A DNA stretch of 64,000 nt from Candidatus Bathyarchaeota archaeon. GTDB taxonomy: Archaea > Thermoproteota > Bathyarchaeia > Bathyarchaeales > Bathycorpusculaceae. The notes below the pieces were generated by a model that did not search any database, was not told the origin of the DNA, and saw nothing but the letters and a program-made list of their open reading frames with translations. The stretch lies in NCBI GenBank assembly GCA_963827165.1, contig CAWGZR010000005.1:704001-768000 (forward strand), given 5' to 3'. Positions 39,074 through 57,335 of the stretch are shown piece by piece (positions within the stretch are counted from its first letter, which is position 1; each line of letters starts with the position of its first letter). A program made the position numbers and the translations under genes.

Positions 39074-40269
39074 TTCCCCCTAAGGTTTGCTTCATCTCGC
39101 CCGAGTATTGGCCTCTCACAGGAGGCACAGGCTCCTACGTCTACTACCTTTCCAACGAACTCCTCAAGAACGGCTACAAAATCTATGTTGTCACGGCAGG
39201 TAACCAAGCCCAAGACATCCAAGTCAACCCGCGACTAAACGTCTCTTTCCTTAAAATTCCCAAAACCCCCATTGTCAAATCGTTTATGCTTGCGGGCGCA
39301 AGCCACAGAAAACTCCAAAGTGTCCGCGACACCGCCGGCGTAGATGTCACCCATCCGCAGCTCCCGTTAACACCAAATTTTGCGGTGCCACCTAAATTTG
39401 GCAAAACCCTTGTATGCACTGTGCATTCAACGTGGAAAGGTGAAGCGGAAGCCATCCGAGGTGAACCTTACAGCCGCTTAAACGCCAACGAAAAGTTTCT
39501 TGTGAGTTTCAACAGATTTTTGAGGTTTTTTGAAGAAGGCATGCTTCATCGTGCACGAAGAATCATCGCGGTAAGCCACTTCACGAAATGGGAACTAACA
39601 ACCTACTATAAGATTCCTCCGAGCAAAATCCAAGTCATACACAACGGTGTTGACACGCGAAAGTTTCAACCAACCTCGGACAAACGCAAAGTCAAGCAGG
39701 AACTCGGATTCAACCCCGACGACTTGGCCATCGTATCAGTCGGCAGGCTCTACGCACGCAAAGGCTTATTTACGCTCATCGATAGCATGCCAACCGTCGT
39801 CAAAAGTTTCCCAAACGCGAAATTCATCGTTTCAGGCAAGGGACAAAGCGACGAAATGCACAAACTCACCGCCTATGCCGAGAAAATCGGGATGAGAGAC
39901 AACTTGGTTTTCACTGGTTACTATCCTGACAAGAAGTTGCCCCTGCTCTATCAAGCCGCAGATGTATTCGCTTTCAGCACCTTCTACGAACATCACCCCT
40001 TCGCAGTATTGGAAGCGCTTTCCACAGGTTTACCCGTAGTGACGACTCGTGTCGGCGGAATCTCCGAAACTATACAAAACGGCAAAAACGGCTTTTTAGT
40101 CGAGCCGTTCAAACCAAAGCAGTTCGCTGACAGAATCCTCTACCTCCTGGAGCATCCCGCGGAGGCCAAGGAAATGGGGGCGCTTGCGAGAAAAACTGTT
40201 CTTGATGAATATGATTGGCGAATAGTCGTCAAAGATGCCATGAAAGTATACGATAAAGCGCTGAGCTAA
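39070..40269 (+). CDS. GT4 (GT-B) glycosyltransferase
   Basis: 'EYWPLTGGTG', 'HNGVD', 'VGRL..RKG', 'EALSTGLPVV'. Confidence 0.9.
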   Translation: MIPPKVCFISPEYWPLTGGTGSYVYYLSNELLKNGYKIYVVTAGNQAQDIQVNPRLNVSFLKIPKTPIVKSFMLAGASHRKLQSVRDTAGVDVTHPQLPLTPNFAVPPKFGKTLVCTVHSTWKGEAEAIRGEPYSRLNANEKFLVSFNRFLRFFEEGMLHRARRIIAVSHFTKWELTTYYKIPPSKIQVIHNGVDTRKFQPTSDKRKVKQELGFNPDDLAIVSVGRLYARKGLFTLIDSMPTVVKSFPNAKFIVSGKGQSDEMHKLTAYAEKIGMRDNLVFTGYYPDKKLPLLYQAADVFAFSTFYEHHPFAVLEALSTGLPVVTTRVGGISETIQNGKNGFLVEPFKPKQFADRILYLLEHPAEAKEMGALARKTVLDEYDWRIVVKDAMKVYDKALS

Positions 40270-41216
40270 GCGATTTGAACTGGCTCTTTTCTATATGCCA
40301 TCGTGACCTTCTGGAACAGCTTAACAATATCAAGCGAGCAAAAAAAGAATTTCGTAAGTAACTCATGCTGATAAATCATCATTTGCGCTTTCACTGGTAA
40401 ATCGATCCTAGGCGGCTCAAACCTGTGTTTAACAGTGGCAATAGGCAAACCTTCAAGTCTGATGTCGTCTTCGGCCATGCTCGTTTTGTCGGCAATGTAG
40501 CCGAGATAGGTTTCTTTCCAGTTTAGCCGCATGATTTTGGCGGCTGTAACATCAACTGCTAAAGCGTCGTTGCCAATCAGCATCAACCCCATCTTGACCG
40601 GTTTGCCTTTGGTGGGTCCGTTGCCTTCGATTCCAACTCTTGCATCCATAATTGTCAGTTGCGGTTTGAACAATGTGTAGAGGCGGTAGAAGACTTCAGG
40701 CAAGAATGGATGCAGGTAGATGCGTTTGTTGCTAGGTACGCAGCCAAAGAGGTTTTTGACTGCGCCGCTATAAGCCATAAATTCATGCGTCTTCATTAAA
40801 GGCAAATCCACCACAGCGTCGGCTTCTAGGACGGTTTTGGGTAGGAACAGCCGCTTCAATGGAGTGTTGCTTTGAAATTTTACTTCGACGACTTTGTCTT
40901 CGGAGAGATTTATGACACTGCCGCCTCCAGCTTCCACTGCGGCTTGTACGCCTGTTTTATCGAACGCCGTCCAGCAGGGATAGTTAAACCCATTAGATTC
41001 ACCCACGAGGACCTCGCTGTTGCCGTCACGGAGCAAGCCGACGAGCTGTTTCATCAGCTCTGGGCTTGTCACGACACCCGGCAGGTATTCGGGGTGGCTT
41101 AAGTTAGGTTTTATGAAAATTTTTCCCTTACCTCCCAACCCAGATTTAGCGACGGCTTCCTTAACGATCTGGCTTATGTCATCTGTTGCACGGGAAATCT
41201 TAACGGTTTTCTGCAT
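40266..41216 (-). CDS. DUF362-family Fe-S protein
   Basis: 'IKPNL...VVTSP', 'LPLMKTH....SGAVKNLFGC', 'EGNGP..G'; ATG 41216. Confidence 0.8.
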   Translation of the reverse strand: MQKTVKISRATDDISQIVKEAVAKSGLGGKGKIFIKPNLSHPEYLPGVVTSPELMKQLVGLLRDGNSEVLVGESNGFNYPCWTAFDKTGVQAAVEAGGGSVINLSEDKVVEVKFQSNTPLKRLFLPKTVLEADAVVDLPLMKTHEFMAYSGAVKNLFGCVPSNKRIYLHPFLPEVFYRLYTLFKPQLTIMDARVGIEGNGPTKGKPVKMGLMLIGNDALAVDVTAAKIMRLNWKETYLGYIADKTSMAEDDIRLEGLPIATVKHRFEPPRIDLPVKAQMMIYQHELLTKFFFCSLDIVKLFQKVTMAYRKEPVQIA

Positions 41217-41220
41217 TTGT

Positions 41221-42654
41221 TCAGAAATTTTTTGCAGCCTCCGCTTGTTTTCCCATAATGCAACCTGGGTCAGAATTGAACATGTCACCGTTGTGGTACG
41301 CGGCTGAGCGTGCCCTGCAACCACCGCAGACGTACTTGTAAGTGCATTTTCCGCAAGCTCCCTTGAGGTTGCCTCGGTTCCGCAGTGATTTGAATAGGGG
41401 CGCGTTTAACCAGATGTCTTGGAACTTTTCGGTTTTGAGGTTGCCGACTTTCACTGGCAAAAACACGCAGGGATGAACATCTCCTTGAGGCGACAATGAA
41501 CAGTAGAGTCTGCCAGCCCCGCAGCCGCCAATGAAGTCCGCAAGCGGGACAGCTTTCTTGGTTACTTTGACGGTTTGCATGTGAGCCATAGACATGGTGA
41601 CATCGCCTGTGCCCTCAGGTCCCTGACATTGCAGTCCAACTCGGGCCAGCTGAGGCGCAGTGGTAAGAATTGTTGTTTTGCATCCTTTCGACATGCGGGC
41701 GAGGAGGTAATGCATGAGCTTTTCGCGTTCTTCAGGCGACAAGTCATCGTCGTAGTGTTCTTTGCCCCTGCCTGTGGGGATAAAGTTGAAGTAAGTGAAA
41801 CGTTCCGCGCCGACTTCTTCGGCAAAAGAAACAATCGCTGGAAACTCTTCAAAATTGTTCTTAGTCGCCGTCGAAGCAATACACACGCATAAGTCGGCTT
41901 CAACGCAGTTTTTAAGCCCAGCAACTGCCCTGTCAAATGCGCCTGGTACGCCTCGGAAGTCATCATGCGTCTTCGCAGACGCTCCATCAATGCTGATGTC
42001 AAGGTAATTGACTTTGGCTTGCTTGAGCTTTTGCACGTTTTCCTTGGTCAGCAAAGTGCCATTGGTAGCTACCGAAACGTAAAGTCCTCGGTCAGCAGCA
42101 TACCGAGCAACTTCAAAGAAGTCTTTGCGGGTCAAGGGTTCGCCGCCTGAGAAAGCCAATGCAGTCACCCCCGCGTCTGCAAGCTGATCAACAACCGTCT
42201 TTGCCTGCTCTGTCGTAAGTTCCTTCTCGTCTTCAGCGCCACTGTTCGAGTAGCAGTGTTTGCATCTGAGGTTGCATTTGTGAGTGAAATCCCAAACGAT
42301 AAGGAAGGGGGCATAAAGGGAAATGGGTTTTTTAATGCCAATATAGCCGAAGCTTTTAGTCAAGTTCAAAACCGCTCGGCGTGCGTACGGATCAGAGAGG
42401 AGCTTCTCAACTTTTTCACGTTTTATGTTTAGGCTACGCCTAAGGAACTCAACCCAGAAACCTATGATCTGCGAGTACAGGATGCTGCACTTTGGGCAGA
42501 TGTGCTCTGTTTTTCCCGAGTAAGAATCCAACGCCGCTTCCAGCACGGTTCTGCCACAAGCTTGGCATTTCCGAAGCGATAACCGTAGCATCCGCTTAGT
42601 CATAGGCAGCGTTATCACCGCATTCCAGAAGCTATCATGGCTAAGCAGACTCAT
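41221..42654 (-). CDS. Radical SAM/SPASM protein with N-terminal Cys-containing extension (candidate GMGT-synthase-like)
   Basis: N-terminal CxxC...CxxC; 'APFLIVWDFTHKCNLRCKHCY'; SPASM 'GGCGAGRLYC...PC...CGKC..KYVCGGCR...C'. Confidence 0.85.
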   Translation of the reverse strand: MSLLSHDSFWNAVITLPMTKRMLRLSLRKCQACGRTVLEAALDSYSGKTEHICPKCSILYSQIIGFWVEFLRRSLNIKREKVEKLLSDPYARRAVLNLTKSFGYIGIKKPISLYAPFLIVWDFTHKCNLRCKHCYSNSGAEDEKELTTEQAKTVVDQLADAGVTALAFSGGEPLTRKDFFEVARYAADRGLYVSVATNGTLLTKENVQKLKQAKVNYLDISIDGASAKTHDDFRGVPGAFDRAVAGLKNCVEADLCVCIASTATKNNFEEFPAIVSFAEEVGAERFTYFNFIPTGRGKEHYDDDLSPEEREKLMHYLLARMSKGCKTTILTTAPQLARVGLQCQGPEGTGDVTMSMAHMQTVKVTKKAVPLADFIGGCGAGRLYCSLSPQGDVHPCVFLPVKVGNLKTEKFQDIWLNAPLFKSLRNRGNLKGACGKCTYKYVCGGCRARSAAYHNGDMFNSDPGCIMGKQAEAAKNF

Positions 42655-42720: not shown

Positions 42721-43344
42721 CTAAACATAGACTTTGCTTTTCAGGATTTTTTCCGCTATTTCCAGGTCTTTAAGCGTGTTAATGTTAAGAAGCACTTCAA
42801 GTTCCTGAGTGATCAGGGCGTTTGTTTCTATCTTTCCTTCCATTTGGCATTTTGCGCCGTTGATGACGTTTACACCCGAGACAGCGTACCAATGTCCATT
42901 GTACTCGTCGGTGGAATCAACGGAGAGCCCCAACGATTCGCGTGCCTTGATCGGCACAAAAACCGCGTAGAAGTCAGTGTTGCATTCTTGGAACTGGCCA
43001 ATGATTTTGTCAAGGAAATTGCCTGTGATAGCTGGAGAATCCGCTGGAATCGTCAAAACAGGACCCATCAACTTGGCTTCACGCGTTGCCTGCTTCAAAT
43101 CATTATGATATCCTTTAGCGTCGGTTCGCAGAACCTTCCATCCCCTGCTTAGACAGTGCTTCTCCGTTTCAGGCGTATTCGGGCTAGTTACCACATAAAA
43201 TTCGGAAACCTTTTCGGCACTCGCGACTGCTTCCCCCACCCAGTCTAGTAACGGTTTACCCAGAAAAGGCAAAAGCGGCTTCTCAACCGGTAACCCGATG
43301 CGTATGCCTTTGCCGCCAGCCATAATCAACGCGGGAACCTTCAT
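42721..43344 (-). CDS. cobY: CobY-like NTP transferase (adenosylcobinamide-phosphate guanylyltransferase family), copy 1
   Basis: 'MAGGKGIR...EKPLL', 'PADSP', 'SGVNVI', 'NINTLKDL'; overlaps the cobS-like gene. Confidence 0.75.
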   Translation of the reverse strand: MKVPALIMAGGKGIRIGLPVEKPLLPFLGKPLLDWVGEAVASAEKVSEFYVVTSPNTPETEKHCLSRGWKVLRTDAKGYHNDLKQATREAKLMGPVLTIPADSPAITGNFLDKIIGQFQECNTDFYAVFVPIKARESLGLSVDSTDEYNGHWYAVSGVNVINGAKCQMEGKIETNALITQELEVLLNINTLKDLEIAEKILKSKVYV

Positions 43345-44171
43345 AGAAGAATTAACACGCCCGCAAACAAAATAAGCGTAACTGCGCGAGCCACTTCATT
43401 GGTGGCACCAATCATGTCGCCTGAAACCCCCCCGAAAATCTTTTCTGCAACTTTCTCCATGACCAAAGCCACTGGGATGCTGACCAAAACCAACCCAACC
43501 GCGACTAAGCCCACAATGGGTTTGCCTATCAATGCGAAATAGGGGAAAACAATCAATATGCAGAGTATGTAGGCGATTATGTTGAGTTTGTTTTTTGCCT
43601 TCTGCAGGAAAATTGAGCCTAACCCTTTATGTGTAGGCTTTCCAATCCAAACGATTGTGACCATGGACAGTTTGGCCGACAGTTCTGCGGCGAGGATGGC
43701 TCCGAAAGCGTAAAGCGGGCTTATCAAAAACAAGCCTGCAAAAGCAGCGAACTCGACAACCAACGCCAACACCGCGCCCCAGTAAGTTACAGTCCAAGCA
43801 TGCGCGACCATTTTGCGGTCATGAAGGCTTCTCAGTCCGAAGGCGTTGCCTAGGTCGATTAGGCCGTCAAAATGTTGGAGTCCTGTGAGAACAAGCAGAA
43901 AAGCCACTGTCATCGCGGCGACCGCAAGCTTCGACAATGTGTCAATTGGCAAGGCAACAAGAGGGTTAACTAAACCAAGCAGGAATTGGACAATGACATT
44001 TGCCCCAAGAAAATAGGTGCCTGCAAGCGTGCCAATTAAGCCGCCGATGATGGGAAAAAGGTAAACGTGCTCCGCCGTCGTGAAGATAAAGTCTTCTTTT
44101 CCCCCTGTAGGGATAATTGTTAGGAAAGACAGCAAATCCCTAAAAGTTTTTATAGCTTTCTCAGGGGACAT
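43341..44171 (-). CDS. CobS-like membrane protein (cobamide synthase family), divergent copy 1
   Basis: 'SFLTIIP', 'FPIIG', 'TGLQHFDGLIDLGN', 'FGGVSGDMIGATNE'; some conserved residues altered. Confidence 0.75.
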   Translation of the reverse strand: MSPEKAIKTFRDLLSFLTIIPTGGKEDFIFTTAEHVYLFPIIGGLIGTLAGTYFLGANVIVQFLLGLVNPLVALPIDTLSKLAVAAMTVAFLLVLTGLQHFDGLIDLGNAFGLRSLHDRKMVAHAWTVTYWGAVLALVVEFAAFAGLFLISPLYAFGAILAAELSAKLSMVTIVWIGKPTHKGLGSIFLQKAKNKLNIIAYILCILIVFPYFALIGKPIVGLVAVGLVLVSIPVALVMEKVAEKIFGGVSGDMIGATNEVARAVTLILFAGVLILL

Positions 44172-44209: not shown

Positions 44210-45148
44210 GTGGTAGCTATGGGGGAACTTAAGGGGAGAAAAATACTTGTAACGGGTGGAGCAGGGTTCATCGGATTCCATCTATGTACGCGTCTTTCAG
44301 CTTTATCTTCTGATTTAACGATCTACGATGACTTGTCAAGCGGCAAAATGGAAAACGTCAAAGACGTTGGCAAAGCAAAGTTTGTAGAAGGCAACATTCT
44401 GGATCAAAAAAAGCTGCTTTCACTGGAAAAGCCAGATTTGATTTACCATCTAGCAGCCCAAGTAGTTGTCCCCTACAGCATGGAAAACCCAATGATAGAT
44501 TTTGAAACCAACGCCAAAGGAACCCTGCAAGTTCTGGAAAAAGCCCGCAAAGACGACGCTAAACTCGTCTTTTCATCAAGCGCAGCAGTTTACGGAAATC
44601 CAAGTGTGTTTCCAACACCCGAAACCTACGGGTTCCATCCATTTTCGTGCTACGGATTATCCAAGGTAGTTGGCGAAGAATACTGTGAAATGTACCGTGA
44701 CCAATACGGGTTAGACGTCACCATAATGAGGTTCGCTAACGTCTATGGATTAAGGTGCCACGGTGTAATTCACGACTTTTTAGATAAAATAGCCAAAAAC
44801 CCGAACAAACTTGAGATAATCGGTACGGGGTTGCAGTCCCGCGATTTCGTGCATGTTTCAGATGTGGTTGACGCACTCATAACAGTGGGCTCAGAAGAAT
44901 TCACTAATGGCAGAACCTACAACTTAGGCTATGGGACAACGATAAAAATAATCGATCTCGCCCACCTTATGCTTAAAATTCTAAACTTACAAGATAAAAC
45001 GGTCGTGACAACAACAGGTGTCTCTTGGCAGGGCGACGTAACTACAATATGGTTTGATAATACCAAGGCTAAGAGAGAGTTGAAGTGGAATCCCAAAGTA
45101 AGCCTTGAAGACAGTATCAAAGAAGTCATTGCTGACAGGAAACTATAA
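44210..45148 (+). CDS. NAD-dependent NDP-sugar epimerase/dehydratase (GalE-like)
   Basis: 'VTGGAGFIG', 'SSAAVYG', YxxxK 'YGLSK', 'RFANVYG', 'RDFVHV'. Confidence 0.92.
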   Translation: MVAMGELKGRKILVTGGAGFIGFHLCTRLSALSSDLTIYDDLSSGKMENVKDVGKAKFVEGNILDQKKLLSLEKPDLIYHLAAQVVVPYSMENPMIDFETNAKGTLQVLEKARKDDAKLVFSSSAAVYGNPSVFPTPETYGFHPFSCYGLSKVVGEEYCEMYRDQYGLDVTIMRFANVYGLRCHGVIHDFLDKIAKNPNKLEIIGTGLQSRDFVHVSDVVDALITVGSEEFTNGRTYNLGYGTTIKIIDLAHLMLKILNLQDKTVVTTTGVSWQGDVTTIWFDNTKAKRELKWNPKVSLEDSIKEVIADRKL

Positions 45149-46035
45149 TGGCTGCTCCCGCCCCGGCCAGAGGGCTAATCGCTCTTCTGAGGCTCCCCTA
45201 CTGGCTGATGACAGGCGGCTTATCTCTACTAACCGCGTTCGCAATCGCAAAAAACCCCGCGAACCTAAGCGCACAAACTATTCTGCTGATTTTCTTTTCA
45301 ATGGCATTCATCACGTCGGCGGGCTTCGCGATAAACGATTATTTCGACCGAGAAAGTGACGCCCTTATCAAGCCGAAACGTCCCATACCGTCGGGGGCCT
45401 TATCTTTGAAGCAGGTGATGGCTGTTTCAGGCGTTTTGTTCGCTGCTGGATTAGCTATGTCCTTTTTCATTAACTGGTTAAGTTTCGCAATAATCGCAGC
45501 AGACTCTGCTTTGCTTCTAGTTTACTCAACGCTTGTTAAACGCAAGTCAGGGTTCGCAGCCAACGTTATGGTTGGGATTTTGACGGGCACAGCTTTTATG
45601 TACGGCGAAGCCACAATATCGAGTCCTCCAGCAGTAACCATAATCTCCTTAAGTCTTTACCCCATAGCTCTGGGCACTATCGGCGGCAACGTACTTCGCG
45701 ATGTGCTAAGTCTTGACGGCGACCGAAAAACTGGTTACCCCACACTTCCACAGAAAATCGGCATCGGCAATTCGGCGAAGGCTGCCGCTGGGTTATTCCT
45801 GTTGACCGGTTTGCTTGCGCCTTTGCCTTTTTTCGTAGGCAACTTTAACTTTTACTATTTGATACCCATCGTGGCTTGGAGTGTCCTCTTAATCTACTCG
45901 TCTGTTCGTCTAGTTACCGCTGCTTCAACCGTTGCAAACGTGAGAAAATATGAACGAATAGTAACTATGTCGATGATTCTGCTCCCGCTAGCGTTGATTC
46001 TTCAGGCGGCATCCCACTTGATCGGAGGGCTGTAA
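45148..46035 (+). CDS. UbiA-family prenyltransferase, DGGGP synthase-like
   Basis: 'INDYFDRESD...KPKRPIPSG', about 8 TM helices, second motif 'RDVLSLDGD..GYPTLP'. Confidence 0.82.
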   Translation: MAAPAPARGLIALLRLPYWLMTGGLSLLTAFAIAKNPANLSAQTILLIFFSMAFITSAGFAINDYFDRESDALIKPKRPIPSGALSLKQVMAVSGVLFAAGLAMSFFINWLSFAIIAADSALLLVYSTLVKRKSGFAANVMVGILTGTAFMYGEATISSPPAVTIISLSLYPIALGTIGGNVLRDVLSLDGDRKTGYPTLPQKIGIGNSAKAAAGLFLLTGLLAPLPFFVGNFNFYYLIPIVAWSVLLIYSSVRLVTAASTVANVRKYERIVTMSMILLPLALILQAASHLIGGL

Positions 46036-47508
46036 GTGAGCGAAACCAAAAGCATCTGCCCAGAATGCCAGAAAAAAATAGACGCCCAACTACGGCAAGC
46101 CAACGGTAAAATAAAAATCACCAAGCATTGCCCAGAACACGGCGAATTCGAAGCTACACACTGGCAAAGCACACCCGTCTTTAATCACATGCAAACCTAC
46201 GATCAATTTCAGTACCTGGGAGATTTAAACGCTTCAAAAAACCCTGAAGGTTGCCCCTACGTCTGCGAAACTTGCAACAAGCATGCTTCAGGAACAGTTA
46301 TTGGAGTAATCGACGTGACGAAACGTTGCAACCTTCGTTGCGCAATCTGCTTCTCAACATTTCCCGAGCAAGGTAACGATTACGAGCCAACCAAGGAACA
46401 TCTCATAAAAATGCTTGAGTTCGTGAGCCAAGCAAACCCCAAGCCTCCTGCCATTCTGTTTTCAGGCGGAGAACCCCTTGAACGCGAGGACATGCCCGAA
46501 ATTGTCGGCGCCGCCCACAGACTAAAGTTCATGACTATTCTAGCAACCAACGGGACTCATTTGGTTGACACCCCGGGGCTAGCAAAGAAGCTCAAAGACA
46601 AAGGCTTGAACATTGTTTATTTGTCATTTGACAGCTTCCATGACGATTTTAACAAGAAGATTAGAGGAAAGGCGCTGCTTGAGGAAAAACTCAAAGCAAT
46701 AGAGGTTTGCCGCAAGCATGACATGGAAATCATCTTGGTTAATACGTTGATGAAAAGTCTTAACGATAAGGAAGTTGGCGACATGATACGGTTCGCCGCT
46801 AAAAACACGGACATAGTGCGGGGCTTAATCTTCCAGCCAATAGCCTTCACCGGTAGAGCCACGGAGAACCCTTTCCGCGAAAACTTCCGCGAATGGTCCT
46901 TTGCCGAAGACGTTGAAAAACAAACAGGCGGCGAAATCAAAGCAACCGATTTGTATCCCATGTCAGTTATGACGTCGCCGATCAAGATAATGCGAAAATT
47001 CATGAAAAAGCCTTGGCCCCTGTTTTCATGCAGCCCGCAGTGTGGAATTGTAAACTGGATTTACGTTTCTAAAGAGGGCAAAATGTTCCCTATCAACCGG
47101 TTTGTCAACTTTGATCGTTTCTTCTCAACCATTAGAAAAACTGCCGAGTCCGCCGAATCCAAAGGCAAACTCTCGCTGCTCTCTTCACTGTTTATGGCGT
47201 CTATGCTTTCGATGGATATGCTTCTTGTGACGCAAGAAGTGGGTATGCTTACGCTCCTGAATTCGATCATGCGTATGCATCTTTCACCTTCATATCAGTC
47301 ACTTGGCAAAATCCGAAGAAGAATCTTTCTTTTGGGCTGCATGGCTTTTATGGATTCATATAATTTCGATGTAAACCGCGTAAGACGCTGTGTAGTCCAC
47401 TACATTACACCAGACCTGAAAATCATACCTTTCTGCGCCTACAACAATATCCACCGGGTGGCAATCGAAAAAGAATATGCGGAAAAGCAAAAGAAAACTC
47501 AAGCTTGA
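46036..47508 (+). CDS. tes: Tetraether lipid synthase Tes / GDGT-MAS (MJ0619-family radical SAM)
   Basis: N-terminal 'CPEC...CPEH', 'GCPYVCETC..H', 'DVTKRCNLRCAIC', 'SCSPQCG', C-terminal 'FMDSYNFDV.RV.RC.VHY..PD..IIPFC.YN'. Confidence 0.8.
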   Translation: MSETKSICPECQKKIDAQLRQANGKIKITKHCPEHGEFEATHWQSTPVFNHMQTYDQFQYLGDLNASKNPEGCPYVCETCNKHASGTVIGVIDVTKRCNLRCAICFSTFPEQGNDYEPTKEHLIKMLEFVSQANPKPPAILFSGGEPLEREDMPEIVGAAHRLKFMTILATNGTHLVDTPGLAKKLKDKGLNIVYLSFDSFHDDFNKKIRGKALLEEKLKAIEVCRKHDMEIILVNTLMKSLNDKEVGDMIRFAAKNTDIVRGLIFQPIAFTGRATENPFRENFREWSFAEDVEKQTGGEIKATDLYPMSVMTSPIKIMRKFMKKPWPLFSCSPQCGIVNWIYVSKEGKMFPINRFVNFDRFFSTIRKTAESAESKGKLSLLSSLFMASMLSMDMLLVTQEVGMLTLLNSIMRMHLSPSYQSLGKIRRRIFLLGCMAFMDSYNFDVNRVRRCVVHYITPDLKIIPFCAYNNIHRVAIEKEYAEKQKKTQA

Positions 47509-48029
47509 TTTGTAACTTGAATTGGCAAAACGCAGTAGTCATACGTAAACTGGTATGTGCCGCCATCGGCGGGGTTGAATGTGTACAGTTCAAAAACAAC
47601 CCAGTAGCTGCCGACCTGATTCTCTGTGACTGTGATTGACTGATGCCAGCTTGCTCCATTCTTTAGCGTCATGTTGCATGTTTCGGCGGCTGGGGCGTTC
47701 ACTGGAAAAGAGTTAAGATTCGGGGTTATTTTCACCAAAACTTGGTACTGAACGGTCCAACCCATGTTGTTAACGACGGTTAATGGGACGGTAAAGGTGC
47801 TATTCTGATTGGCGACTAAAAGCTGTGGGTAATTCGCCGCTTTATTTTGTGCGTCAAGCAGGTAAATCGTGCTGTATCCTTCAGGCGCCGGCTTAAAGAT
47901 AACGTAGTAGCCGACAAGCATAGATGAGATGATGATCAAGGCGAGAGCGATGGCGACTAAGTAGCCTTTGTCATCGTTTAAGCCGATTTTCTCTCCAATG
48001 CTTTTGACACGTTCTAACTGTATCCGCAT
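47499..48029 (-). CDS. DUF1616-like membrane-anchored protein
   Basis: N-terminal TM, 'EGYSTIYLLD...A.NYP', 'VFELY'; start uncertain. Confidence 0.6.
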   Translation of the reverse strand: MRIQLERVKSIGEKIGLNDDKGYLVAIALALIIISSMLVGYYVIFKPAPEGYSTIYLLDAQNKAANYPQLLVANQNSTFTVPLTVVNNMGWTVQYQVLVKITPNLNSFPVNAPAAETCNMTLKNGASWHQSITVTENQVGSYWVVFELYTFNPADGGTYQFTYDYCVLPIQVTNQA

Positions 48030-48708
48030 CTAAAAATCCCTTGAATATAGTGCTAAATATTTCTATGCCTGACTTAAATGGTTTAAGTTTGGTCTTCCCA
48101 TATTTGCGCGGTTTGTAAGTCGTGGGGATTTCAACCATATTGTATCCGACTTTGGCGAATTGGACCAGCATTTCGGTGGCAAACGCCATGTCTCCTTCTA
48201 CCAATGGAACGTTGTCGATGCATTCATGTGATATTGCCCTGAACCCTGATTGGGTGTCGCTCAGTAGTTGGCTGTAAAAGAAGTCGTAGACCAAGGTTAT
48301 GATTTTGTTTCCGATAAAATTCGTGAATCCCATGGCTTTTTTCGGGTCAAACATGCGAGTGGCTAAAACCATGTCTGCGTCTTTCTCAAGCATTCTTTCA
48401 ACCAAGCGGTTGATGTGTTTGACCTCGTAGGTTCCGTCGCCGTCAACCATGACTATTATGTTTCCCTTCGCGTTTTTCATACCTGTTCGAAGTGCTATTC
48501 CGTAACCGCGTCTTGGCTCGAGAATTAGCCTGCAAAAACCTGTGTCTTTAATGAGCTCCATTGTCCCGTCTGTAGAGTTGCCGTCGACGACGATGATTTC
48601 GTTTGGGTAAGCTAGCTCTTTGTGGATGGTGTTTACTGCTTCAAGTATGTTTCCTGCCTCGTTGAGTGTCGGAATGACTACCGAAACCAATTCGACTTTT
48701 GATGTCAT
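47971..48708 (-). CDS. GT2 glycosyltransferase (DPM1-like)
   Basis: 'VIPTLNE', 'VDGNSTDGT', 'RGYG.AL', 'VDGDGTY', 'DTQSGFRA'. Confidence 0.9.
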   Translation of the reverse strand: MTSKVELVSVVIPTLNEAGNILEAVNTIHKELAYPNEIIVVDGNSTDGTMELIKDTGFCRLILEPRRGYGIALRTGMKNAKGNIIVMVDGDGTYEVKHINRLVERMLEKDADMVLATRMFDPKKAMGFTNFIGNKIITLVYDFFYSQLLSDTQSGFRAISHECIDNVPLVEGDMAFATEMLVQFAKVGYNMVEIPTTYKPRKYGKTKLKPFKSGIEIFSTIFKGFLDADTVRTCQKHWRENRLKR

Positions 48709-48751: not shown

Positions 48752-49909
48752 TTAAATAAGCTCTTCGTATATTTCCACGAGAGATTCAACGTTTCGCTCC
48801 CAGCTATACTTTTCTTCCACCGCTGCTCGAAGCTCCAACCCACACGAGGATAACTCAGCATGGGAATATTCTAAGACTGCCCTAGCCATTGGCTCCGGCT
48901 GATTAGGCGGCACCAAAGTCCCACAATTTTCCATCAGAATTTCCCTTATTCCACCAACGTCTGTAGCTACAACCGGCAAGCCACATGCCATGGCTTCAAG
49001 CGCAACCAAAGGCAAGCCTTCCCCAGATTTTGACGGCAACACAAAGAAGTCAGCCGCGTTATAGCAAAGGGGCAAATCAACGTCGCTGACAAAACCCGTC
49101 AACCGAAAATTATTTTCTATTCCCAGTTGCCGAATTCTTTCTTGAACCCCCTTTTGGTCTGGTCCCTTTCCAACAACAAGGAAAACCAAATTAGGATTCT
49201 TCTTGACTGCAAGGTTCGCGCTTTCAATCAATGTGTCGATGCCGTTCTTGTAAACAAGTCTCCTCACCGTTAAGGCCACAACCGCGTTTTTGGGCATCCT
49301 AAATTTAATTCTCATTTCTTCGCGTTTTCCTGGCAGATGCCTGAAATGGCGCAGGTCCACCCCGTTGTGGATGACTTTGATTTTGTTTGGTTTTGCACCT
49401 AAACCAAGAACGTACTGTTTGGTTGCGTTACTTACAGCGATGATTCTGTCTGCTTCTCTTAGCGTCTCTTTCCCCACAGATAGGTCGTTTAGGCGTTCCA
49501 CGTTGTCGAACATATTGTCGTACTGGATGAACGTGTTGTGCTGGGTCAAAACGAACGGTTTGTTGTATCCTTTTGCAAGTTTAGCAGCGATCAACGAGGT
49601 CAAATATGGGTGGCCGTGTGCGTGGACTATGTCGGCTGCGTTTACGGCTTTAAGGAAAGTTTGTAGGCTTGTCGGGGTCGGGATAGAGTAAGGTATGCCG
49701 AGGCGGAATCCGGTGTTTAACGATTCATAGCACTGGACGTCTATGCCATCAACGGTGTAAGTTTTGGGGGTGTTGATGCGGTTGGTCACAACCATGGGCT
49801 TAAAGTTTAGGTTCATCAGCCGCTTGCTCTGTTCATAAACAACCTTTTCAATCCCGCCAACATGAGGCAGAAAAGTATGCGTAACAATGCATAAACTTGT
49901 TTGAACCAT
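48752..49909 (-). CDS. GT4 (GT-B) glycosyltransferase
   Basis: 'PHVGGIE', 'HNGVD', 'KNG', 'EGLPLVALEAMACGLPVV'; ATG 49909 preferred. Confidence 0.9.
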   Translation of the reverse strand: MVQTSLCIVTHTFLPHVGGIEKVVYEQSKRLMNLNFKPMVVTNRINTPKTYTVDGIDVQCYESLNTGFRLGIPYSIPTPTSLQTFLKAVNAADIVHAHGHPYLTSLIAAKLAKGYNKPFVLTQHNTFIQYDNMFDNVERLNDLSVGKETLREADRIIAVSNATKQYVLGLGAKPNKIKVIHNGVDLRHFRHLPGKREEMRIKFRMPKNAVVALTVRRLVYKNGIDTLIESANLAVKKNPNLVFLVVGKGPDQKGVQERIRQLGIENNFRLTGFVSDVDLPLCYNAADFFVLPSKSGEGLPLVALEAMACGLPVVATDVGGIREILMENCGTLVPPNQPEPMARAVLEYSHAELSSCGLELRAAVEEKYSWERNVESLVEIYEELI

Positions 49910-50636
49910 GGAGCCCAACTGCGTAACCTCCACAACCAACATACGATAATAAGCCTTATGGTAAATCCCCAACCAAGCGCGGAAGATAGAAAAATTTCAG
50001 ACTGAAGTGTCTAACCAAGAAACGGGCGTTCTGAAGCCAATGTTTATAAAACTCTTGGAAGGTGACTAATATTAAATCCGTAATTCGTTTCATGAGCGTA
50101 AATTGAACCTGGATGTTCAAAATTTCATTTTATTCGCTCTTGATGGGGCTTGAATCGGGGTTGAATTTGTAAAATATTGCCAAACTGCGCCTTTATCTTA
50201 CGAAAAAGTGAACTTGTGCACCATGGTTTTGTGGTGACTTTGAACTTGGGTGACGTTGATTTGCAGTGAAAACGCGGTAACTTGACTACGTTCGTAAAAG
50301 TGGTCTGAGTTGAGAGATTGCGCCGCCTTAAAATCGTTTTCAACAGCCACTCAGATGTGAACCGCTGACTAAATAGTAATGCTTATATGAAAAGGTTGGA
50401 TAAACCAACCAGTCGTGGGCTGAATAATTTGTTGAACATCGAGAAAAGACCGTTTGTCCCAATCAACTTTCTAACAACTGACCGATTATCTGGATGTTTG
50501 ATGGCTAAAACCCCGTTTTGTTGCCCAAATTGTTCTGAGATTAACACTTCAAATCATTTGCAGTTTACATTCACTTGGACCCAACGAAGAACAGAAGGTA
50601 AATCGTGAAAGAATATTTAGGGAGGAAGAAATTAAA

Positions 50637-51324: not shown

Positions 51325-52425
51325 ATGGACCAATCACTCGATGTAATAATTGCCAATAATGAGCTGAAAGCGAAGGCTTTTCTGGATGAAGTGGCAGGCA
51401 AAAACCCACTTTTCATATGCACAATCGGCACCACGGAAACCGGCAAAATCGCAGGGATATCTGCGGCTGGAGCAAACCCCGAGTTCACGGACTACACTCC
51501 GCCAGCCGATGCTGAACTGCTTCTCTTAGGCAAATGCAAATCCATCAACGGTGTTCCTATAACTCCAGACGGAATCCCCACGCCTGGGTTGATCACGAGG
51601 TCGGCTTTGCAACTCGCTAACATTCCCGTGCTCATAGCCAGCGGCGGGGTAAAGGTGAAGCCTCAGATTCCTTTTTTGGATTTGGGTGGAAATCCAGGAA
51701 GGGACATTCGAAGCGGCAATGCAGTTGACAATGTTGCGGAAGTTATTGAACGCGCTAAAGTTGCTGGACAAAACCTGGCAAAAGCCGTGGATTACCTTGT
51801 GATTGGCGAAAGCATTCCAGGCGGAACAACAACCGCGCTTGGCGTCTTATCTGCTCTGGGAGTGAAAGCAGAAGGAAAAGTAAGCAGCACGCTACCTCAA
51901 AATCCTCACAGTTTGAAGGCTGAAACGGTTCGGTCGGGTTTGACAGCTGCAGGCGAAGATTTCGGCACTTTAGCGAAGGATCCTATTCGGGCTATTTCCT
52001 GTGTTGGCGACCCCATGATGGCGGCCTTTACGGGTTTGGTTATTGGGGCATCAAGTCAGGTTCCTGTTTTGATGGCGGGTGGCACTCAGATGAGCGCTGT
52101 CTTGGCCCTGATTAACGCTTTGGAACCCGATGTTCTGTGCAACGTGGCTGTGGGCACAACTCGCTGGGTTGCGAAGGACAAGTCATCTGACCTTAAAGGA
52201 ATTGTGAAGCAGTTCTGCGACGTGCCGATTTTGGCGGCTGACCTTAACTTTTCAGAATCCCGTTTTCCAGGCTTACAAATCTATGAGACGGGTCTAGTCA
52301 AAGAAGGGGTCGGCGCAGGCGGAGCTTCTATCGCTGCGATGGCGAAGCTTGGTGGCGCTGTAACGGCTGACCTATTGCTTAAAGAGATAGAGCGCAATTA
52401 TGGTTCGCTTATGGGTTTGAAGTGA
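51325..52425 (+). CDS. cobT: Archaeal-type nicotinate-nucleotide:benzimidazole phosphoribosyltransferase CobT (TIGR00303-like)
   Basis: 'GTTETGKIAGISAAG...YTPPADAE', 'PTPGLIT', 'GESIPGGTTTAL', 'AGGTQM', 'VKEGVGAGG'. Confidence 0.88.
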   Translation: MDQSLDVIIANNELKAKAFLDEVAGKNPLFICTIGTTETGKIAGISAAGANPEFTDYTPPADAELLLLGKCKSINGVPITPDGIPTPGLITRSALQLANIPVLIASGGVKVKPQIPFLDLGGNPGRDIRSGNAVDNVAEVIERAKVAGQNLAKAVDYLVIGESIPGGTTTALGVLSALGVKAEGKVSSTLPQNPHSLKAETVRSGLTAAGEDFGTLAKDPIRAISCVGDPMMAAFTGLVIGASSQVPVLMAGGTQMSAVLALINALEPDVLCNVAVGTTRWVAKDKSSDLKGIVKQFCDVPILAADLNFSESRFPGLQIYETGLVKEGVGAGGASIAAMAKLGGAVTADLLLKEIERNYGSLMGLK

Positions 52426-52426
52426 G

Positions 52427-53200
52427 ATGGCTATTAAAGAGCTCAAGAACCTGCTGTCTTTCCTCACAATCTTTCCCGTTGCAATGGACAAGGATATGCT
52501 TACTGACTGCGCAAAAGATATGTGGGCTTTTCCGCTGATCGGCTCTTTCATCGGTTTGATTGCCGGCGTTTTCGGTTGGGTTGCTGGCCAGTTTGTTCAC
52601 GGCTTAGTCATCGGCGGCTTAGTTTTGGCAGCTCTTTTGCTAATAACTGGGCTTCATCACACAGACGGGCTTCTTGATTTCGGCGACGGCGTCATGGCTC
52701 ACGGCACACCCGAACACAAGATTGCGGTCATGCATGACCAACTAACAGGCGCAGGCGGCTTATCCATGGGCATCATGACTATGCTTATCGCAGCCTTAGC
52801 CATCGGGCAATTAAGTGGCAATGGGCTTTTCAAAATTCCCCTGATAATCGGCGGCATCATCGCAGTTGAGGCTTCTGCGAAACTTTCGATGGTCGTTATG
52901 GCTTGGGCTGGAAAATCTGTTCATCAAGGCATGAACTCGTCTTTTCTTGAAGCCATGAGTGGAAGCAAAGGCACCTTGCGCTTGGTTGCTGCCGTTGCTA
53001 TCTCTTTCGCTGTTGCTTTGCCTTTCCTGGGCTGGGCGGGCGCTTTCGTTGTCTTAGCCGGCGTGATTACTAGTTTGGTGATGGTTGCGGTTGCCCACCG
53101 GCACTTCGGCGGGGTCACGGGTGACGTTTTCGGTGCCACAAACGAGATAACCCGAATGGTATGCGTTATCGTTTTGCTGGCGGTGGTTGCTTGGGTATAG
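52427..53200 (+). CDS. cobS: Adenosylcobinamide-GDP ribazoletransferase CobS, canonical copy
   Basis: 'SFLTIFP', 'TGLHHTDGLLDFGDG', 'MHD..TG..G', 'FGGVTGDVFGATNE'. Confidence 0.9.
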   Translation: MAIKELKNLLSFLTIFPVAMDKDMLTDCAKDMWAFPLIGSFIGLIAGVFGWVAGQFVHGLVIGGLVLAALLLITGLHHTDGLLDFGDGVMAHGTPEHKIAVMHDQLTGAGGLSMGIMTMLIAALAIGQLSGNGLFKIPLIIGGIIAVEASAKLSMVVMAWAGKSVHQGMNSSFLEAMSGSKGTLRLVAAVAISFAVALPFLGWAGAFVVLAGVITSLVMVAVAHRHFGGVTGDVFGATNEITRMVCVIVLLAVVAWV

Positions 53201-53814
53201 CCGCTCTTGTGATGGCTGGGGGAAAAGGGACCCGCATGCAAATCCAAGAAGAAAAACCCCTCATACGAGTCTGCGGAAAACCTGTTATAGAATACGTAAT
53301 TGCAGCATTGCAAAACGCCCAAAAAATTGACTGCATCTTCGTGGCAACAAGCGCTTGTACGCCTAAAACCGCCAAATACCTGAACGGATTTTCAGTTAAA
53401 GTGCTTGATACCCCCGGGAAAGACTATGTTTCGGATATGGGCTACGCGAGCCAAAACTTGAAACTGGGCGTTTTCGTGGCTATTGCGGCTGATTTGCCTC
53501 TTGTCACGAGCGAAGTGGTCGACACTATCGTTGAACGATATGAATGCTGCGGCAAACCCGCTCTTACCGTCGCGGTCCCCCTGGAAACAAAGAGGCGGCT
53601 TGGGATGTGTGTCGAGTACTCTTTTAAAATGGATGACAAAGATGTCGTTCCCGTTGGCATCAACGTTATTGACGGGCGCAAGAGGTACGGTGACGAGTGG
53701 CTTGATCAAGACATCTACCTGCTTGATCTGGACGAATTAGCCATCAACATTAACACAGTAAAGGAACTGCAGCTTGCCGAAAATTTTTTGGCTGAGCGAA
53801 AAACTTGTTTCTAG
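53191..53814 (+). CDS. cobY: Adenosylcobinamide-phosphate guanylyltransferase CobY, copy 2
   Basis: 'MAGGKGTRM...EKPL', 'GKDYVSD', 'ADLPL', 'PVGINVI', 'NINT'; TTG start overlapping the cobS stop. Confidence 0.85.
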   Translation: MGIAALVMAGGKGTRMQIQEEKPLIRVCGKPVIEYVIAALQNAQKIDCIFVATSACTPKTAKYLNGFSVKVLDTPGKDYVSDMGYASQNLKLGVFVAIAADLPLVTSEVVDTIVERYECCGKPALTVAVPLETKRRLGMCVEYSFKMDDKDVVPVGINVIDGRKRYGDEWLDQDIYLLDLDELAININTVKELQLAENFLAERKTCF

Positions 53815-54764: not shown

Positions 54765-55553
54765 CTAAAGATGGAGTAGATGAACTAATGTCGGGACAGG
54801 CACGTAAAGACGGATGTAGACGGCTGCGACTATTATTCCGATAGTAAGCGCCAGCAGTGCGTAATCTCCCTTGTGCAATTTTAGTGAGTAAAGGTTTGTG
54901 CGTTTTTTGGTTGCTCCCCAAGCTCGGCTTTCCATTGCCTCCGCCAACTCCAGGCTTCTTCGGATAGCACTGACTATTAGTGGAATGAGCACGGGCACGT
55001 AATTCCGTATCCGCTTCATTAAGCCTCCTTTCTCAAGCTCGAGCCCCCTAGCTTTCTGAGCGTCCATTATCGTTTGGGCTTCCTCAGCGAGTACGGGGAC
55101 GAAACGCACTGCTGTAGTGAAGGCGAAAGCGAATTCGTATGGCACGTGTGATTCTTCCAACGCCAAGCCGAGGTGATCTGGCGAGGTGGTTAGAAAGAAA
55201 ACTGAGAAGGATTCAACTAGCACCACGAAACGCAAGGTCAAAGCTAACGCGCTCTCTACGGCGGGAGGAGCCACCTTGTACCCTGCGTAGAAAAAGGACG
55301 TTCCAACGTTTACTGCGAAGATGACGACTGCCAAGAAAGCTGCCCCCCGCAACGAGCGAACCCATTGCCGCTGCACCCGCGCTAGAAAAACGAATGGAAT
55401 CTGTAGTGCGAAGAGAAAGAGCAGAGGGATGATCTGGGCGAAAATGATTGCGACGGCGAAAACTGATATTACATAGACGAATTTTATTCTGGGGTCTAGG
55501 TTGTGGATTGGAGAGTAAACTTTGCGGAATTTTAACCCGTCGAAAACGCTCAA
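54765..55553 (-). CDS. ecfT: ECF transporter transmembrane component T
   Basis: 'HNLDPRIK', 'RFVP', 'AQKARG', 'AEAMESRA'. Confidence 0.9.
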   Translation of the reverse strand: MSVFDGLKFRKVYSPIHNLDPRIKFVYVISVFAVAIIFAQIIPLLFLFALQIPFVFLARVQRQWVRSLRGAAFLAVVIFAVNVGTSFFYAGYKVAPPAVESALALTLRFVVLVESFSVFFLTTSPDHLGLALEESHVPYEFAFAFTTAVRFVPVLAEEAQTIMDAQKARGLELEKGGLMKRIRNYVPVLIPLIVSAIRRSLELAEAMESRAWGATKKRTNLYSLKLHKGDYALLALTIGIIVAAVYIRLYVPVPTLVHLLHL

Positions 55554-56374
55554 TGGGTTTTGCCTTCCTTGGCGTTTAAGATTATTTTTTCTGCCTCGTA
55601 AATGTCAATCACGTTCTTGGGAAAACCCAGCGGCGCCAATTTCGCGAATACTTGCGCTATTTGAGGAAGAACAATCGAGGATTCAGCCAAAACCTCGGCG
55701 TCAGTCAAAATTTCTTTTCCAGAGCCTTCAGCAACGATTTTCCCCTCCTTCATCAAAACAACACGGGGGTTGCATTCGGCGACGAATTCCACGTCATGAG
55801 TGACTATGACGACGGTTTTTCCTTGCGCCTGCATCTGCATAATGAATTGGGTTAGCTTTTCCTTTTGTTCGTGATCTTGGCCAATTGTAGGTTCGTCCAA
55901 AATCAGGGTCTGCGGGTTCCAAGCTAAAACCGAAGCTAATGCGACACGTTTCCGTTCGCCACCGCTTAAGAGGAAAGGTGAGGTTTTGCGGTACTGGCTA
56001 AGAGAAAGTAACTCAAGCGCCCACGTTACCCTTTTTTCAACAACGTCTGGCGTGAACCCGAAGTTTTTGAGGGCAAAAGCGATTTCTTCTTCGACTGTTT
56101 CGCTGAAAAGTTGGTGGTCAGGGTTCTGGAAGACAAAACCGACGTTTCTAGCGAGTGTTGCAACGCTGGTTTTGGTGGTTTCAACTCCGTTCACAATCAC
56201 TTTTCCCGAGGTGGGTTTCAGTAGCCCGTTGAAGTGCTTGACGAAAGTTGATTTTCCCGCTCCGTTTTGCCCCATTATCGCCAAGAACTCACCGTCTTTC
56301 ACTGTTAACGATACACCTTTGAGGGCTTCCACTTTGTTCGCGTATGAAAAGTGAATGTCCTGCGCCTCAATCAT
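55550..56374 (-). CDS. ecfA: ECF transporter ATPase (EcfA/CbiO)
   Basis: 'GQNGAGKST', 'FQNPDHQLF', 'LSGGE', 'LDEPT', 'THD'. Confidence 0.92.
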   Translation of the reverse strand: MIEAQDIHFSYANKVEALKGVSLTVKDGEFLAIMGQNGAGKSTFVKHFNGLLKPTSGKVIVNGVETTKTSVATLARNVGFVFQNPDHQLFSETVEEEIAFALKNFGFTPDVVEKRVTWALELLSLSQYRKTSPFLLSGGERKRVALASVLAWNPQTLILDEPTIGQDHEQKEKLTQFIMQMQAQGKTVVIVTHDVEFVAECNPRVVLMKEGKIVAEGSGKEILTDAEVLAESSIVLPQIAQVFAKLAPLGFPKNVIDIYEAEKIILNAKEGKTH

Positions 56375-57222: not shown

Positions 57223-57335
57223 ATTTGTGCCTGCACTTAAGCGTAAACGACTGTTCATTTAAGCGTAGCTACCCAACTTTGGCTGTTTTTTAAATCTACA
57301 CATATCCAAAAAGAAAACCCGTTGAGTGAAGATTT

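Follow-up and report, generated by a model that had tools for sequence, protein, structure and literature searches.

The enzymes closest to the system described here are the tetraether synthase Tes, or GDGT-MAS (MJ0619, PDB 7TOL; MA_1486), and the DGGGPS of M. jannaschii (MjDGGGPS, PDB 6M31/7BPU). The available portions of the GDGT-MAS study (Lloyd 2022, PMC9433317) describe saturated diether lipids as the substrate and a non-specific binding of the head groups. In the accessible part of another study (Zeng 2022, PMC8941075), two Tes copies are counted in 22 of 322 methanogen genomes, the function of the second copies is left open, and the one second homologue that was tested, MA_1114 of M. 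acetivorans, yielded only trace macrocyclic archaeol. For MjDGGGPS, the excerpted text of the review PMC9385802 reports that D180A, D183A, and D187A each strongly lower the activity, and that alanine mutants of this motif 3 are impaired in the binding of geranylgeranylglyceryl phosphate (GGGP) and hardly in that of geranylgeranyl diphosphate (GGPP). Here, we analyzed a stretch of 64,000 nucleotides (the window, G000:C5:704001-768000) from a Bathy-6-type Bathyarchaeia metagenome-assembled genome (MAG) of 3.13 Mb that is 94.5% complete, in which paralogues of both enzymes, named UbiA2 and Tes2, are encoded directly downstream of a sugar epimerase-like gene. We tentatively propose, at a chance just short of even, that this triad is the core of an accessory, lineage-restricted membrane-lipid module beside the ordinary archaeal pathway, and that its product is a glycosylated ether or tetraether lipid of the Bathy-6-type Bathyarchaeia.

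The three genes are located on the forward strand and abut, as stated in the initial annotation of the window. The first gene (44210-45148) encodes a GalE-like extended short-chain dehydrogenase/reductase (SDR) of the nucleoside diphosphate (NDP)-hexose 4-epimerase type, 312 amino acids long, with a GTG start codon and an ATG nine nucleotides in. It is followed by the gene for UbiA2 (45148-46035, ATG start), a DGGGPS-like UbiA prenyltransferase paralogue of 295 amino acids, and the gene for Tes2 (46036-47508, GTG start), a Tes-like radical SAM protein of 490 amino acids. Direct reading of the junctions confirmed these positions. The SDR and UbiA2 genes meet in the sequence TAATG, where the stop codon TAA (45146-45148) and the start codon ATG (45148-45150) have one A in common, and the stop codon of the UbiA2 gene (TAA, 46033-46035) is directly followed by the start codon of the Tes2 gene (GTG, 46036-46038), with a GGAGGG sequence at 46024-46029, 7-12 nucleotides 5' of this start. 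The stop codon of the Tes2 gene (TGA, 47506-47508) lies in a 10-nucleotide overlap with the end of a convergent gene (47499-48029, reverse strand). Scans with bacterial promoter and terminator models and with Rfam, models that are not designed for archaea, returned nothing useful for the region.

UbiA2 and Tes2 are extra paralogues beside housekeeping copies. The genome contains four UbiA-family genes, which correspond to a heme o synthase, a MenA-like protein, a DGGGPS-like protein (UbiA1), and UbiA2, and two Tes-family genes, Tes1 and the Tes2 of the window. There is a single copy each of GGGPS and CarS, and two polyprenyl synthases, one of which is encoded close to the MenA-like gene; no sign of an extra donor-chain synthase was seen among these two. 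Both housekeeping proteins outscore the pair in the window, UbiA1 with 249.8 bits versus 164.7 bits for UbiA2 (NF009523) and Tes1 with 663.7 bits versus 463.3 bits for Tes2 (NF045702). The identity between UbiA2 and UbiA1 amounts to 31%, and that between Tes2 and the Tes1 of this genome to 39%.

Phylogenies were inferred with maximum likelihood in a quick search, with support from the Shimodaira-Hasegawa-like approximate likelihood ratio test (SH-aLRT) only. UbiA2 and its orthologues formed a clade of their own (10 sequences, SH-aLRT 99) on a long stem of 2.38 changes per site, apart from a class-wide UbiA1 clade of 39 sequences that roughly follows the taxonomy; the outgroups of this tree are very long, which makes its root unsure. 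The Tes2 clade (11 sequences, SH-aLRT 100, stem 0.67) is not the sister of the Tes1 of this genome, and the clusters nearest to it were P0122, P0128, and P0135, although the tree did not resolve its place within Tes. Neither UbiA2 nor Tes2 is nested among the housekeeping copies of the same genomes. The initial annotation would have been contradicted by a genome in which these were the only DGGGPS and Tes genes and branched with the orthodox enzymes. This is not the situation here, because the genome has a separate UbiA1 and Tes1 and both members of the window pair branch apart in long-stemmed clades. Two further sequences in the UbiA tree deserve mention. A very divergent UbiA with a canonical KDIEDIKGD motif (L098, G127:C1:55600-56950), found in a genome of the same genus and placed on an end branch of 4.14, may represent a third DGGGPS-like type, and the sequence L117, from the second family that carries the module (see below), reads KDIVDIEGD yet groups with UbiA1.

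UbiA2 belongs to the UbiA superfamily (PF01040, 119 bits versus a gathering score of 34.2) and shares several features with DGGGPS. Its sequence matches 6m31 with an E-value of 1.2e-30, and the AlphaFold2 model (predicted local distance difference test score, pLDDT, 85.1) is an all-helical membrane fold of roughly nine helices, for which the top structural matches were 7bpu, 6m31, 4tq4, and 4od4. The closest of these is MjDGGGPS, 7bpu, with template modelling (TM) scores of 0.79/0.83 and 28% identity. Motif 1 reads NDYFDRESD (residues 63-71, 45334-45360), in which N63, D64, D67, and D71 are invariant in 14/14 aligned orthologues and align with N62, D63, D66, and D70 of MjDGGGPS, conforming to the NDxxDxxxD pattern. 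Likewise, the tyrosine and lysine of motif 2, Y126 and K131, are invariant and correspond to Y125 and K130 in MjDGGGPS. However, UbiA2 scores below the cut-offs of all NCBIfam DGGGPS equivalog models (NF009521, 163/296; NF009522, 96.5/353; NF009523, 164.7/269). The 120 matches listed in a homologue search were all at least 78% identical and were annotated as DGGGPS or UbiA family, and a Protein Atlas search returned UbiA clusters only.

The main difference from MjDGGGPS is located in motif 3, which reads RDVLSLDGD (residues 184-192, 45697-45723), as had been observed in the initial annotation. In the alignment, the MjDGGGPS segment G-R175-E176-I-V-K-D180-F-E-D183-M-E-G-D187 corresponds to G-G-N-V-L-R-D-V-L-S-L-D-G-D in UbiA2. 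Thus, D185 and D192 are retained at the positions of D180 and D187, Ser188 is located at the position of Asp183, which breaks the aspartate triad of DGGGPS, and G180-N181, just upstream of the motif, stand for R175-E176. The three changes R175G, E176N, and D183S (MjDGGGPS numbering) are fixed in the 14/14 aligned orthologues and in 80/80 related loci, and invariant in all orthologues seen. Since the replaced residues are placed in the motif where mutants of MjDGGGPS are impaired in GGGP binding, they are consistent with an altered acceptor or an altered handling of it, but do not give its identity.

The serine cannot carry this suggestion by itself. Chlorophyll synthase (ChlG/BchG, PDB 9sau/9sas) reads N-D-F-K-S-V-E-G-D at this position and has the form D-x-x-S-x-[D/E]-G-D-R of the second Asp-rich motif in common with UbiA2. 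The match of UbiA2 to this family is much weaker than to DGGGPS (57.5 bits in PDB; NF005742, 88.2 bits versus a cut-off of 313), and UbiA1 scores higher than UbiA2 in the ChlG model (116 bits). Furthermore, ChlG esterifies a tetrapyrrole carboxylate, and nothing here points to a tetrapyrrole. The housekeeping enzyme of the class is itself non-canonical; 38 of 40 fetched Bathyarchaeia copies of UbiA1 and the copy of this genome (L002:1441-2286) contain a GRE..KGxxDxxGD motif, with a glycine at the position of Asp180. The initial annotation, which took KDxxDxxGD as the usual motif of DGGGPS, is hence correct for the M. jannaschii enzyme but not for the UbiA1 of this class. It had interpreted the serine variant as a sign of a paralogous ether-lipid branch with a non-glycerol or modified, possibly sugar-derived acceptor, and while the paralogy and the separate clades support a part of this interpretation, the weight placed on the serine alone was overstated. 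Next to the UbiA1 gene (L002:397-1185, reverse strand), we also observed a gene for a 262-amino-acid protein in which a single hydrophobic helix at the N-terminus is combined with very long low-complexity stretches rich in Asn and Gln.

Tes2 belongs to the radical SAM proteins and has, at its N-terminus, the zinc ribbon that is typical of Tes. It passes the cut-off of 450 bits for the family model NF045702 narrowly and aligns over residues 3-482 to the solved GDGT-MAS structure 7tol (377.5 bits). We compared it to the ligands and residues listed in the available portions of Lloyd 2022 (PMC9433317), except for the three C-terminal cysteines, which were assigned by alignment to 7tol. The rubredoxin motif C8-X2-C11-X20-C32-X2-H35, the [Fe4S4]N ligands C73, C77, C80, and H83, the radical SAM motif C98-X3-C102-X2-C105, and the C-terminal cluster cysteines C336, C452, and C467 are all invariant in 13/13 orthologues, including the form from the second family. 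So are Met439, at the position of the labile methionine, and Tyr456, the counterpart of the strictly conserved active-site tyrosine (Tyr459 in the M. jannaschii enzyme). All four metallocofactor sites of GDGT-MAS are thereby present. Because the metal ligands, the labile methionine, and the conserved tyrosine are all kept, Tes2 is expected to function as a tail-coupling enzyme, as judged from its residues. It differs from Tes in being a divergent second copy that is found in two families of Bathyarchaeia only and always in an operon with a UbiA gene. As a second copy it resembles the second Tes homologues of methanogens, which are likewise extra Tes-family genes beside a working Tes. However, the accessible part of PMC8941075, by whose description alone the two were compared, reports no linkage of MA_1114 to a UbiA, epimerase, or GT4 gene.

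To place the triad in a broader context, we compared the best 80 related loci, in which the identity is 64-86% for UbiA2 and 65-95% for Tes2. The SDR, UbiA2, and Tes2 genes are colinear on one strand in 80/80 loci. With junctions projected from the start codons of the window, the SDR/UbiA2 junction falls between -13 and +2 nucleotides in 79/80 loci, most commonly as a 4-nucleotide overlap, and the UbiA2/Tes2 junction between -4 and +2 nucleotides, also in 79/80. The motif 3 pattern R-D-[IV]-[LF]-S-x-[D/E, once N]-G-D is present in 80/80 loci and also in the 45%-identical form from the second family. As gene order, junctions, and motif are kept across the 80 loci, the arrangement is beyond what is expected by chance. 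The closest public loci come from Bathyarchaeia MAGs with titles that give Bathy-6 or Candidatus Bathycorpusculum, sampled from peat, soil, pulp-mill reactors, and termite guts. Two of the contigs with the module, L014 (DATHCJ010000018.1) and L078 (DATIXS010000154.1), with UbiA identities of ~83% and ~74%, are deposited under the bacterial MAG names Limnocylindrales and Acidoferrum; they are probably mis-binned archaeal contigs.

In an evenly sampled set of 151 genomes of the class, in which the groups are coded, Tes2-type genes (at least 46% identity) and UbiA2-type genes (at least 45%) share one set of 15 genomes, where they are adjacent in every case. Twelve of these genomes belong to the 16 of the window's own family (f1) and three, all from one genus, to the five genomes of a second family (f5) in the same taxonomic order, with none among the 130 genomes of 29 other families. 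All 15 bearers retain a UbiA1-type gene, which is class-wide, and 13 retain a Tes1-type gene. A larger sample of the phylum (401 genomes) gave the same picture, with the Tes2 type in 23 genomes (f1, 19/26; f5, 4/6; elsewhere, 0/369). In a scan of 1.84 billion representative proteins with Tes2, a single full-length cluster, the form from f5, reached 46% identity, and all other full-length matches were at most 38% identical.

The gene for a glycosyltransferase of the GT4 (GT-B) type (48752-49972, reverse strand; PF00534, 140.3 bits) is inherited together with the triad. Its orthologues (E<=1e-60) were found in 13 of the 151 class genomes, all of them bearers of the module and with the gene within ~3 kb of the triad. 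Two bearers gave no match; both are fragmented assemblies, and in one of these the module begins at the first bases of the contig. The convergent gene that overlaps the end of the Tes2 gene (47499-48029, reverse strand) encodes a small membrane protein of 176 amino acids with one N-terminal helix and a CARDB/Ig-like beta-sandwich, which matches the C-terminal part of DUF1616 (PF07760, 49 bits) and adjoins the triad in 14 of the 15 module-bearing genomes. Its model (pLDDT 83.7) has the CARDB domain 2kl6 as its best compact fold match (TMt 0.75). In f5, the genes for the GT4 protein, the beta-sandwich protein, the SDR, UbiA2, and Tes2 follow each other in this order on a single strand, and the UbiA2 and Tes2 genes overlap by four nucleotides.

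These patterns bear on a first alternative, which is that UbiA2 and Tes2 are isozymes that carry out the ordinary digeranylgeranylglyceryl phosphate and glycerol dialkyl glycerol tetraether synthase reactions under another condition, such as oxygen, temperature, or growth phase, with the epimerase and the glycosyltransferases as unrelated neighbours. In both fold and family, UbiA2 is closest to DGGGPS, Tes2 retains every catalytic feature of GDGT-MAS, and the non-specific head-group binding of that enzyme, the single GGGPS and CarS of the genome, and the second Tes copies of methanogens would all fit such a role. However, the stems of both clades are very long, the identities to the housekeeping copies are as low as 31% and 39%, and residues that are needed for the activity of MjDGGGPS are replaced without exception in UbiA2. 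Furthermore, the GT4 and SDR genes remain linked to UbiA2 and Tes2 across the rearrangement between f1 and f5. We regard isozymes as an unlikely explanation, if one to be taken seriously.

The SDR contains an NAD-dependent epimerase/dehydratase domain (PF01370, 185.5 bits), and its best solved relatives are the UDP-glucose 4-epimerases 4zrm and 3ehe, at ~181 bits. It aligns over its full length at ~180 bits to the short archaeal and thermophile type of GalE (4zrm, 3ehe, 3icp) and shares with these proteins the Rossmann GxxGxxG motif, the serine, and the YxxxK motif, here GGAGFIG, SSSAAVYG, and YGLSK. The absence of a dehydratase Asp-Glu signature is the rule for epimerase-type SDRs, and this pair is also absent here. 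It differs from GalE in that its gene is translationally coupled to that of a membrane prenyltransferase and in its score for the GalE equivalog TIGR01179, 171.2 bits versus a cut-off of 262.3, for which reason we classify it only as a GalE-like extended SDR. A link of the module to a sugar is plausible because the GT4 glycosyltransferase is strictly co-inherited with it. The simplest role for the epimerase is the supply of a sugar for the head group, rather than of the prenyl acceptor that the initial annotation had considered.

A sugar could also be handled in a different context. The mycobacterial decaprenyl-phosphate phosphoribosyltransferase, the product of which is epimerised by an SDR, serves as a model for a glycan-carrier or surface-polysaccharide pathway in which UbiA2 would make a polyprenyl-phosphate-linked sugar, the SDR would epimerise it, and the glycosyltransferases would build the glycan. 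The neighbours of the triad are suggestive in this regard, as they include, besides the GT4 gene and the DUF1616-type protein, a gene for a GT2 glycosyltransferase (47971-48708, reverse strand) that resembles AglJ and dolichyl-phosphate-hexose synthases (TIGR04182, 158.2 bits, below the cut-off of 325). Orthologues of this gene with at least 65% identity are adjacent to the module in f1 bearers only, and none is adjacent in f5. UbiA2 also has a weak match to the phosphoribosyltransferase model NF008977 (46.8 bits), and the membrane phosphoribosyltransferase 8j8k matches its structural model with a TM score of 0.57. However, UbiA2 reaches ~164 bits in the DGGGPS models versus 47 bits here, and such a pathway offers no role for Tes2, for which lipid-tail coupling is the only known chemistry, although its gene is the best conserved of the set (65-95% identity versus 64-86% for UbiA2). 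We consider a glycan carrier distinctly improbable.

The lipid module that we favor would operate as follows, with every substrate and product, the order of the steps, and the action of the genes on one molecule being predictions from homology and gene linkage. UbiA2, an integral-membrane prenyltransferase of the DGGGPS type, would most likely add an isoprenoid chain to a lipid acceptor, which would be bound differently from GGGP in the orthodox DGGGPS and which, or the head group of which, may differ. Tes2 would most likely connect two saturated isoprenoid tails at their methyl ends, through the same radical C(sp3)-C(sp3) coupling as GDGT-MAS, to give a membrane-spanning or macrocyclic lipid. 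The GalE-like protein would most likely supply the 4-epimer of a UDP-hexose, and the co-inherited GT4 protein would place the epimerised sugar on the lipid. The predicted end product is a glycosylated ether or tetraether lipid that is specific to the Bathy-6-type Bathyarchaeia; the module probably makes a lineage-specific lipid, and probably one that spans the membrane.

Contigs from RNA libraries of peat, obtained in three studies, cover parts of the region. Five contig pieces from a single run match the SDR, the 3' end of the Tes2 gene, the GT2 gene, and the GT4 gene with zero mismatches, and contigs of relatives from the two other studies, 90-99% identical, span the UbiA2/Tes2 junction (45886-46370).

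Several points weigh against the proposed lipid module. Its function is predicted from homology and gene linkage. With a single GGGPS and a single CarS in the genome, the module falls short of a full parallel pathway and may just draw on GGGP. As the serine is also found in chlorophyll synthase and UbiA1 lacks the equivalent of Asp180, deviations in motif 3 cannot be simply mapped onto the acceptor. Tes2 clears the Tes cut-off by only 13 bits, and the trace product of MA_1114 indicates that Tes paralogues may be weak or act otherwise. The epimerase and the glycosyltransferases could serve protein or surface glycosylation. The co-inheritance was counted over kin and comprises few independent events (two families, with some genera in which everything is absent), and it can therefore not prove a shared function. 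Finally, RNA libraries can hold DNA and the contigs show neither the strand nor a single transcript, so that they lend weak support to expression.

A second pair of genes is located upstream of the triad and transcribed divergently from it. CobS2 (43341-44171, reverse strand) is a second, more divergent membrane transferase of the CobS family, and CobY2 (42721-43344, reverse strand), with which it is paired, is a second MobA/CobY-like nucleotidyltransferase. CobS2 scores 110.5 bits in TIGR00317 (cut-off 110) and 88.3 bits in PF02654, versus 135.9 bits in PF02654 for the better copy directly after cobT, and CobY2 scores 123.5 bits in TIGR00454, versus 154.7 bits for the other copy. The identities are 35% between CobS2 and CobS1 and 34% between CobY2 and CobY1. 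The CobY2 gene follows the CobS2 gene in both f1 and f5 loci. Genes of the CobS2 type (at least 155 bits) were found in 14 genomes, all among the 15 bearers and each with a second CobS, and within the class sample, two CobS genes are seen in bearers of the module only; on the same scoring, genomes with a single CobS gene reach at most 108 bits. In f5, the pair adjoins a gene that, from a by-eye reading of the translation, encodes a CobD-like aminotransferase, and CobS is altogether absent from the f1 genera that lack the module. For these two reasons, CobS2 and CobY2 are considered as possible members of the module only.

The pair suggests two further readings. In the bolder of these, the seven or eight co-inherited genes would together make up a single, self-contained pathway that leads to a new class of archaeal membrane lipids. 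UbiA2 would prenylate an acceptor other than GGGP, CobY2 and CobS2 would attach a phospho-linked head group in place of CarS and a CDP-alcohol transferase, the epimerase and the GT4 protein would add a sugar, and Tes2 would dimerise the product. The step assigned to CobY2 and CobS2 would rely on a chemistry of nucleotide activation and transfer for which the cobamide nucleotide loop is otherwise the only known example. We consider such a pathway a long shot, but if true, it would provide a diagnostic biomarker lipid for Bathy-6, which is dominant in paddy soils and frequent in peat. The other reading is that the set, with the adjoining CobS2 and CobY2, modifies or prenylates a corrinoid, pterin, or quinone-like cofactor. 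The restriction of the CobS2 type to module bearers and the CobD-like neighbour in f5 could be taken in this direction, as could the cobT-cobS1-cobY1 genes in the same window. Against it, the nearest relatives of UbiA2 are lipid synthases, and the lack of any CobS in f1 genera without the module, a joint loss, may reflect general genome reduction. We consider a role in cofactor chemistry very improbable.

We found no description of a UbiA-Tes paralogue operon in the literature that was searched, although most subscription papers were outside its reach and this is no proof that the operon is unpublished. The words 'lipid', 'tetraether', and 'UbiA' are absent from the Bathy-6 genome paper PMC11697101, and the Methanomassiliicoccales paper contained nothing relevant on lipid paralogues. 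The literature covered, in part through excerpts, contains no description of the lipids of the Bathy-6 subgroup; the only biomarker that it assigns to Bathyarchaeia is butanetriol-based tetraethers (BDGTs), in the marine genus Baizosediminiarchaeum. This raises the question of whether the module could make such backbone-modified lipids, namely butanetriol- or pentanetriol-based tetraethers (BDGTs or PDGTs). Bathyarchaeia are reported as BDGT sources in the available texts, none of which names a BDGT enzyme, and the Tes family was formerly annotated as pterin C-methylase (Pfam name HMPTM). However, the accessible part of the review PMC12694404 gives BDGTs as a biomarker of the marine Baizosediminiarchaeum, and Methanomassiliicoccus is a second producer, whereas the module is present in two families only, which include Bathy-6 and Bathycorpusculum MAGs (as the groups in our sample are coded, the presence of Baizosediminiarchaeum in it was not established). 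Moreover, no relative of Tes2 above 46% identity was found elsewhere, and Tes2 retains the cofactor set of the coupling type. A role in BDGT synthesis is not supported, and we give it next to no credence.

In the available portions of PMC12694404, Bathy-6-type members make up >90% of the Bathyarchaeia in paddy soils. Among the related MAGs of our comparison, many originate from peat. The module, which is conserved, lineage-restricted, and present in peat RNA libraries, and which unites a re-tooled enzyme of the DGGGPS kind, a complete one of the Tes type, and a glycosyltransferase, may point to a lineage-specific lipid in the main Bathyarchaeia of soil and peat. With four or five genes that could be expressed in the hosts that have served for Tes, Gms, and Ted, it offers a route to a candidate biomarker that is both concrete and cheap. 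It also represents a natural experiment on the choice of acceptor in DGGGPS-type enzymes and on the role of second Tes copies, a question that has been open since MA_1114.

Several other genes in the surroundings were examined. A gene for a radical SAM/SPASM protein (41221-42654, reverse strand) was considered as a member of the module and rejected, since it is present in 78 of the 151 class genomes and often on other contigs. The protein is similar to heme b synthase (TIGR04545, 313.8 bits versus a cut-off of 500; region 40266-42654, reverse strand), and its gene, which encodes an N-terminal Cys-rich extension, overlaps a DUF362 gene; the two are kept as a pair upstream of the module in many f1 loci. 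In an f5 locus, by-eye reading revealed a gene similar to pyridine-nucleotide-disulfide oxidoreductases between the Tes2 gene and the CobS2-CobY2 pair (L094:9830-11281, reverse strand), and the CobD-like aminotransferase gene after this pair (L094:13270-14409, reverse strand). The housekeeping-type cob genes of the window, cobT (51325-52425), cobS1 (52427-53200), and cobY1 (53161-53814), are colinear on the forward strand, and downstream of these, at 54765-57258 on the reverse strand, are three genes which, from their translations only, resemble the T component and two ATPases of an ECF or cobalt-type transporter.

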